A stretch of 64,000 nucleotides of DNA from Escherichia coli (GTDB taxonomy: Bacteria > Pseudomonadota > Gammaproteobacteria > Enterobacterales > Enterobacteriaceae): the NCBI RefSeq assembly GCF_044324785.1, contig NZ_CP172127.1, one strand, 5' to 3'. The notes beneath the pieces were generated by a model. The model had not been told where the DNA came from. It saw nothing but the letters and a program-made list of their open reading frames with translations, and did not search any database. The stretch's first letter is position 1, and each line of letters begins with the position of its first letter. Made by a program: the position numbers and the translations under genes. Shown here piece by piece: positions 43,197-43,738 of the stretch.

Positions 43197-43738
43197 AGTT
43201 TGTGTAAGATAACGAACTGTTTTTTCTAATTGCTCAGGACTTGCGTGTCGGGGCGTTGGCGGTAATGCATTGACCCAGGGTTGGTAAAAAATAATAAAAG
43301 GAAGTGATAGTAGTAATGATATAAAACAAAGAGGTGTTATTTTTTTATATGTAAATTTTTAATAAAAGGCGTTATTTCATTATTATTTATAATGAGTTAT
43401 GAATGTTTATTTTATTACGGTTGGTAGGAATATAAAAAAAGTATTTTTTTCAGTTGGTTCGCTATTTTAAAAAGGAATTCATATGAGAAATAAAAAATAA
43501 TTATGTTATTTATTGGTAGATTGAATTGACAGGGTGCAGAAATCTGAGGGTAAGAAAAGTCAGCAACAACAATCCACTACATCAACAGACCAGCAATCGC
43601 GTGCCGCGATACGCTGGAAATAACCGCAGATTGAACTGGTGGATGGTGTGACTGGCATCAGTCAGTGATGACTTTTTAGCAAACTATGTTCGACCAGTCA
43701 GCATATTTGCTGATTGGTCGAATTGATTAACAATAATG

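Follow-up and report, generated by a model that had tools for sequence, protein, structure and literature searches.

Loss of the yfbL start codon by a one-base deletion in a lineage of Escherichia coli

Where does a protein begin if its reading frame runs on well beyond the first available start codon, and is it still made at all? This question is raised by the gene yfbL in a stretch of 64,000 nucleotides of Escherichia coli DNA (called the window here; contig NZ_CP172127.1 of assembly GCF_044324785.1). The frame that starts with GTG (272 amino acids plus stop; 42378..43196, minus strand) corresponds to yfbL codons 52-323 and includes the whole Pfam M28 domain with its metal-ligand motifs intact. 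Upstream of this GTG (43196-43194, minus strand), the frame stays open for another 54 codons (43358-43197) that read KFTYKKITPLCFISLLLSLPFIIFYQPWVNALPPTPRHASPEQLEKTVRYLTQT until it is closed by a TAA at 43361-43359. An earlier note made from the letters alone had pointed out this extension and the absence of any ATG, GTG or TTG from it, suggesting either a non-canonical start or the loss of the native one by point mutation or junction rearrangement. Its coordinates and translation prove correct, and the list of in-frame codons for 43358-43197 on the minus strand bears out that none of the three canonical starts occurs there. The only near-cognate starts in frame are ATA 43340, ATA 43322, ATT 43295 and ATT 43292. 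From codon 5 on, the open stretch is base for base identical to the 50 codons that follow the ATG in intact alleles of yfbL, so it is not open by chance.

The yfbL locus and the missing base

The window carries, in this order, the nuo operon, yfbM (41772-42275, minus strand), yfbL, elaD (43739-44962, minus strand) and rbn, and its exact ElaD protein bears the NCBI label E. coli. The best identity of its nuo region among 5,426 complete RefSeq E. coli genomes is only 98.9%, so that the lineage of the window has no representative among these genomes. Between elaD and yfbL lies a scar of yfbK that consists of the first ca. 130 bp of this gene (43483-43608, plus strand; translating as MRNKK* and matching MRNKNII... 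of K-12) and its last ca. 40 bp (43629-43668), and these pieces flank an internal deletion of ca. 1.55 kb. The same order of elaD, yfbK scar, yfbL, yfbM and nuoN is found in strains N3 and AST215, which share the scar, have a yfbL ATG, and differ from the window by 4-5 amino acids in the 322 codons of yfbL. On the other side of yfbL, the spacing between yfbM and nuoN is 66 bp (41705-41772), and yfbN, yfbO and yfbP of K-12 are missing in the window lineage. Synteny with yfbM and elaD as well as high full-length identity place the window gene among the YfbL orthologues of Escherichia and related Enterobacteriaceae; of their shared N-terminal layout, an ATG start before a basic and hydrophobic N-terminus and YQPWV, it lacks the ATG. 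By these comparisons, we identify it as the orthologous locus without a canonical start, with the sequence coding for the N-terminus still in place.

The lesion itself was located by alignment to three intact reference alleles, each with an annotated YfbL of 323 amino acids, from N3, AST215 (the nearest complete genome) and a K-12-like strain. These read ACATATGAAAAAAAT where the window reads ACATATAAAAAAAT (in longer context, ...TTTACATATG AAAAAAA TAACACC... compared to ...TTTACATAT AAAAAAA TAACACC...). In short, intact E. coli alleles have ACATATG-AAAAAAA-TAACA (ATG AAA AAA ATA) and the window has ACATAT-AAAAAAA-TAACA, i.e., the G of the yfbL ATG is deleted between positions 43347 and 43346, and the run of seven A residues just behind it (A7; codons 2-4) is unchanged in length. 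The AT left over from the ancestral ATG (A43348 and T43347) is now part of a TAT codon (43347..43349, minus strand). Downstream, the frame is untouched and window codons 2-63 are identical to those of AST215. Upstream, the deletion has shifted the bases by one so that three triplets of the former 5'-UTR (43350..43361, minus strand, including the TAA that precedes them; AAA TTT ACA, an untranslated leader in intact alleles) and a fourth one with the surviving AT read K-F-T-Y in frame up to this TAA. Every intact E. coli allele has an ATG at this site, and so do outgroups drawn from three Escherichia loci of a contig scan of genomes, including E. albertii (ATG AAA AGA) and a divergent "E. coli" that is a separate species representative in its collection (ATG AAT AAA), which establishes ATG as the ancestral state.

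The alignments thus identify a 1-bp deletion as the cause of the lost start, in agreement with the point mutation proposed by the earlier note. A two-step route from ATG to ATA, followed by contraction of A8 to A7, is conceivable since it would produce the same end sequence, but a single deletion is simpler. The other cause that had been proposed, a rearrangement that removed the start together with yfbK between elaD and yfbL, would fit the absence of yfbK from the window and the lone scar upstream. However, N3 and AST215 combine the identical scar with an intact ATG, and the scar (ca. 43483-43668) lies at least 130 bp from the start site, with the deletion junction at least 260 bp upstream of it, so that the alignments refute this idea and leave it with practically no probability. 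The surroundings of the start also contain a mini-ORF, ATG AAA TAA (43372-43380, minus strand), ca. 25 nt upstream of the lost start, which is shared by N3, AST215 and the alleles of two Logan assemblies (L009 and L011) and absent from the K-12-like, strain C and O157 alleles (reading ...GATTCAAC... and ...GATAAAATAAC... there).

Native N-terminus and peptidase domain

Enterobacterial YfbL orthologues characteristically begin with M-(K/N)-K, ca. 18 hydrophobic residues and YQPWV-x-(A/P)-LP, followed by HASPEQLEKTVRYL. Most homologues that can be anchored at VRY (40 of 44) have at least 35 residues before this motif and a hydrophobic 15-mer with a Kyte-Doolittle mean of at least 2.0, and the remaining four are obvious truncated calls; the motif HA(S/D)P..LE..VRY is kept down to ca. 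50% identity. In the window, native codons 2-28 (43266..43346, minus strand; identical to codons 2-28 of AST215) encode the KK n-region, the hydrophobic core and YQPWVNA, and native codons 29-51 (43197..43265, minus strand; LPPTPRHASPEQLEKTVRYLTQT) encode the conserved start of the mature domain with the HA(S/D)P..LE..VRY motif, which is missing from the GTG gene call. All orthologues in the N-terminus comparison start at the position of the ATG with the basic and hydrophobic segment. None of them starts at the equivalent of GTG 43196, as they would if this codon were the ancestral start of a protein without signal peptide, and in all intact alleles the codon specifies an internal Val52.

Judged from its sequence features, the segment encoded by codons 2-28 is certainly an export or membrane-tethering signal. 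It has the predicted hallmarks of a Sec signal (K2 and K3, a core with a Kyte-Doolittle mean of ca. 2.5-3.1, and V-N-A at positions -3 to -1), but close orthologues carry Pro at -1 (VTP or VSP) unlike the VNA of the window. Distant members of the YfbL family (ca. 50% identity; P0050-P0059 and P0086) have a lipobox-like Cys (LSSC, SGAC or LTSC) just before TQPxV that the enterobacterial ones lack, and family members thus seem to differ in how they are tethered to the membrane. Because of the Pro at -1 in close orthologues and the lipobox Cys in distant ones, an uncleaved anchor and cleavage after VNA are equally possible candidates for E. coli YfbL. The KK-hydrophobic-VNA pattern that had been taken for a secretion signal is hence real and conserved, as seen in the 40 of 44 homologues, but a cleaved signal peptide is no more probable for it than an anchor.

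The body of the gene matches the M28 profile PF04389 over positions 1-191 of 193 (E = 2.5e-26; 93 bits at a cut-off of 21.3), beginning at residue 98 of the 326-amino-acid extended translation or approximately native residue 95. M28 enzymes (Pfam PF04389; MEROPS) are co-catalytic zinc aminopeptidases, and the aminopeptidases 2EK8 and 1AMP are among the matches in the PDB (E = 2e-12 to 3e-10). The window motifs GAHYDS, GADDNASG, ASEEPPF, ALEMIG and YHLPGD align with GSHHDS, GANDDASG, AEENGL, QLDMVG and YHTPND of 2EK8, at positions that we take to be the five M28 metal ligands and the catalytic Glu (H-x-D ... D ... E-E ... D/E ... H). By family and ligand motifs, yfbL is thus predicted to encode an exported or membrane-anchored M28 zinc peptidase. 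The literature yielded very little on YfbL and no biochemical data; a recent preprint lists it only as a predicted peptidase (10.1101/2025.09.29.679331). Compared to AST215, N3 and the K-12-like allele, the window has four private codon changes, three of them non-synonymous (P106A, D123E and A203T) and one synonymous, and 98 of 119 homologues have Pro at position 106 whereas three have Ala. Both P106A and the 3:1 ratio would weakly fit relaxed constraint, in a count that is far too small for significance or a selection test.

Spread of the allele and translation from the damaged start

The exact 272-amino-acid product occurs in NCBI, Logan and ENA data, with 170 contigs and 180 index blocks that carry it. 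Two loci with this product, on an ENA metagenome scaffold and in Logan assembly SRR6112422, are identical to the window over a 590-bp upstream region that includes the deletion. A first allele count by megablast with a 54-mer split at the deletion site gave no match and was uninformative, given two SNPs within its 27 upstream bases, an A-run that was perhaps masked and a control that could seed in the 28 left bases, and it was replaced by searches with 100-mers read by both identity and span. With the 100-mer around the site, none of the 5,426 complete RefSeq E. coli genomes has the deletion allele. Their best match is AST215 with 99.0% identity over 101 record bases compared to 100 query bases, the extra G being the sole difference, and all others reach at most 98%. 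These results show a genuine allele that is specific to one E. coli lineage, where it is fixed, and that no genome of the complete set carries.

The earlier note had also considered a sequencing error that hides an ATG. In this case, the genome would truly read ATATGAAAAAAAT and the lost G would be an artefact beside a homopolymer. In favour of such an error, the lesion adjoins the A7 run, and variants with other run lengths in single Logan assemblies may well be artefacts of this kind. Three of these assemblies have A8, A6 and A8 after the ATG (L009:1340, L011:1342 and L012:1340, respectively), and 100-mer searches for the three backgrounds found no exact A6 or A8 match in complete RefSeq genomes; the near-exact hits at the top of the lists (out of 147 and 41 genomes with at least 99% identity) are each one base off the query in length, which is what A7 would give, so that the A6 and A8 variants may be read or assembly errors. 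However, the base lost from the window is a G and the length of its A-run is unaltered, assemblies made independently of it, from ENA and Logan, show the identical allele, and the 272-amino-acid call recurs on 170 contigs from three sources. Taken together, an error in the window is highly improbable. A 272-amino-acid call at another locus (L010) is simply due to an N-gap in the scaffold. The exact-product look-up of a 273-amino-acid protein (P0008) gave no match.

What, then, is still translated from this allele? Anti-Shine-Dalgarno energies of +1.7 kcal/mol at the native start and +1.2 kcal/mol at GTG 43196, compared to a background mean of -2.1 kcal/mol, show no Shine-Dalgarno sequence at either site. 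The leader of the native start is A/U-rich and nearly unstructured (-1.5 kcal/mol over 63 nt), whereas GTG 43196 is paired in a local hairpin (-7.6 kcal/mol). Presumably, choice of the native start depends on the AUG itself. Deletion of the G directly before the A7 run destroyed the yfbL ATG and left the 322 downstream codons, the export or anchor segment and the metal-ligand motifs in frame and intact. Since the native start has no Shine-Dalgarno sequence and relies on its AUG, within a leader that is A/U-rich and unstructured, we infer that loss of this AUG would reduce translation roughly a hundredfold or more. The result would be a young, translationally silenced pseudogene or else a severe hypomorph that depends on weak initiation at AUA 43340, a reading to which we assign a probability of roughly 80%. 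The fully open frame of 322 codons fits a recent loss of expression and equally well continued low-level use.

The nearest in-frame near-cognate codon is the ATA of native Ile4 (43338..43340, minus strand; local fold -1.3 kcal/mol), and it is the only plausible residual start, one that could support no more than a few percent of the normal output. If this codon or another near-cognate start kept the gene functional at a low level, it would give rise to an exported protein without Lys2 and Lys3. Several points speak for this scenario: the AUA shares its unstructured A/U-rich leader with the lost AUG and lies 9 nt behind it, nothing disrupts the frame, and in another lineage codon 4 is an ATG that, after loss of the first ATG, is accepted by the annotation pipeline as start (L003:3360). 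What speaks against it is that the product would lack both n-region lysines, which normally help membrane targeting, that none of the 170 contigs with the exact product has regained a canonical start, and that it would yield no more than a few percent of what is made from a gene already devoid of a Shine-Dalgarno sequence at its native start. Continued function at a low level therefore seems unlikely, and trace initiation at AUA 43340 may persist. The suggestion of a non-canonical start holds only in the sense of weak leakage, as AUA initiation in E. coli reporters amounts to 0.02-3% of that of AUG (bioRxiv 10.1101/063800).

Gene callers annotate a start at GTG 43196 instead, which would result in an N-terminally truncated, cytoplasmic M28 peptidase of 272 amino acids as the earlier note had also envisaged. 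This GTG comes first among the canonical starts in frame, its product takes in the whole Pfam M28 match, and databases contain 272-amino-acid "peptidase" entries. Yet the codon has no anti-Shine-Dalgarno complementarity and is buried in the hairpin described above, no orthologue starts at this otherwise internal valine, and its product would be without the export segment, the conserved HASPEQLEKTVRYL and the first ca. 23 residues of the mature domain, which are conserved as well. Moreover, a periplasmic or membrane enzyme would be mislocalised without its export signal. A genuine start at this GTG is thus very unlikely and we regard the 272-amino-acid frame as a gene-caller fallback and not a real protein. 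On the plus strand, the sequence at 43195-43220 forms a terminator-like hairpin with a 9-bp stem, and its complement in the yfbL mRNA is the hairpin that pairs GTG 43196.

Other yfbL lesions and comparison with known systems

Beyond the start-loss allele of the window, yfbL carries a variety of other lesions. The alleles of O157:H7 (L007:2851-3491) and strain C (L006:2851-3479) have in common a 326-nt deletion that spans nt 263-588 of an intact yfbL and removes H113, D115, D132, E165/166 and E195, i.e., all metal ligands except for the last His. They also have several further indels of 1-7 nt and are annotated in RefSeq as "hypothetical protein, frameshifted"; yfbL is an old pseudogene in both. 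Roughly 35-45% of the complete RefSeq E. coli genomes carry the allele with the 326-nt deletion, an imprecise estimate from evenly spaced rows of two search listings; the 2594 genomes matched by a junction 100-mer at 80% coverage or more are an overestimate because the two halves of the query are joined across the deletion in intact genes. A Qingdao isolate (L003:3346-3362) reads ATAT-A6-TGACA and has lost the first ATG by a 2-bp deletion, and its codon 4 has changed from ATA to the ATG that RefSeq annotates as start. Its yfbL is also split by insertion of ISEc62, an IS21-family element (L003:3944-6071). In the draft genome of Escherichia sp. MOD1-EC7003 (L013:1489-2466), from a cryptic lineage, A9 instead of A7 follows the ATG and shifts it out of the reading frame of a yfbL that is intact in other respects, a change that looks real, and in the E. 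albertii type strain NBRC 107761 (L015:1438-2145) the frame stops after 236 codons. Some E. coli have a deletion that fuses the first ca. 37 codons of elaD via formerly intergenic sequence to yfbL, giving proteins of 378 or 379 amino acids (P0019 and P0020) that read [11 protein letters not shown]...HLQLITNNNEITPFIDNLH-MKKMTPLYF... and, as a further feature of these fusion alleles, have Met in place of Ile4.

Escherichia has lost yfbL repeatedly and independently, and the 326-nt deletion, the IS21 insertion, the A9 shift and the premature stop elsewhere argue that it is dispensable. The allele of the window is an unsurprising case of ordinary early gene decay of a known, dispensable gene. It is one more independent hit on a gene already defunct in a large part of E. 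coli. For annotation, this means that the 272-amino-acid GTG "peptidase" of the 170 contigs, like similar entries, is an artefact of gene-caller fallback and that the locus is better annotated as yfbL with a lost start, i.e., as a pseudogene or hypomorph. Decay of yfbL may not be purely neutral, as hinted at by a preprint that reports Keio knock-outs of yfbL and yfbO to be specifically resistant to phage N4 and complemented by ASKA plasmids (bioRxiv 10.1101/2025.09.29.679331). Such resistance may be a selective reason for the recurrent loss of yfbL and for the lack of yfbO in the window. Based on this resistance of K-12 yfbL knock-outs and the many independent yfbL knock-outs in nature, it is conceivable, as a reading of low probability, that loss of yfbL is adaptive and that the window lineage, with no yfbL start, no yfbO and no yfbK, could carry a phage-selected loss-of-function allele; in this reading, the site of the gene start, the ATG with the following A-run, could also be a preferred target of such mutations.

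Compared to known systems, homopolymer contingency genes resemble yfbL in having an A-run right after the start, with A6, A8 and A9 variants in a few assemblies. They differ from the window allele, which lost a G without any change in tract length, and A7 is short for a contingency tract. Tract-length polymorphism among close relatives, the sign of a contingency locus, was not found in complete genomes of the matching backgrounds, and phase variation of the A-run was rejected as the cause of the lesion given that the A6 and A8 variants are limited to single Logan assemblies, with A9 in one draft genome, and that the lost base is a G. The yfbL pseudogene of O157:H7 and strain C is likewise inactivated at the same locus beside a yfbK scar, but their allele is old and degraded whereas that of the window has one lesion and a complete frame. 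The orthologue of K-12, yfbL (b2271; "M28 family metallopeptidase", 323 amino acids), is located at the same position between elaD/yfbK and yfbM. The window differs from the K-12-like allele by 25 amino acids in 322 codons, mostly in the hydrophobic leader, and is alike in domain and metal-ligand motifs; unlike K-12, it lacks the G of the ATG, has yfbK reduced to a scar and is devoid of yfbN, yfbO and yfbP. Start-loss pseudogenes (the "start lost" class) more usually arise by substitution than by deletion. The window lesion differs from this class in being a deletion, located upstream of codon 2 and without any frameshift in the coding body, and it shares with the class a single-base lesion, an otherwise intact ORF and gene callers that fall back on an internal GTG.
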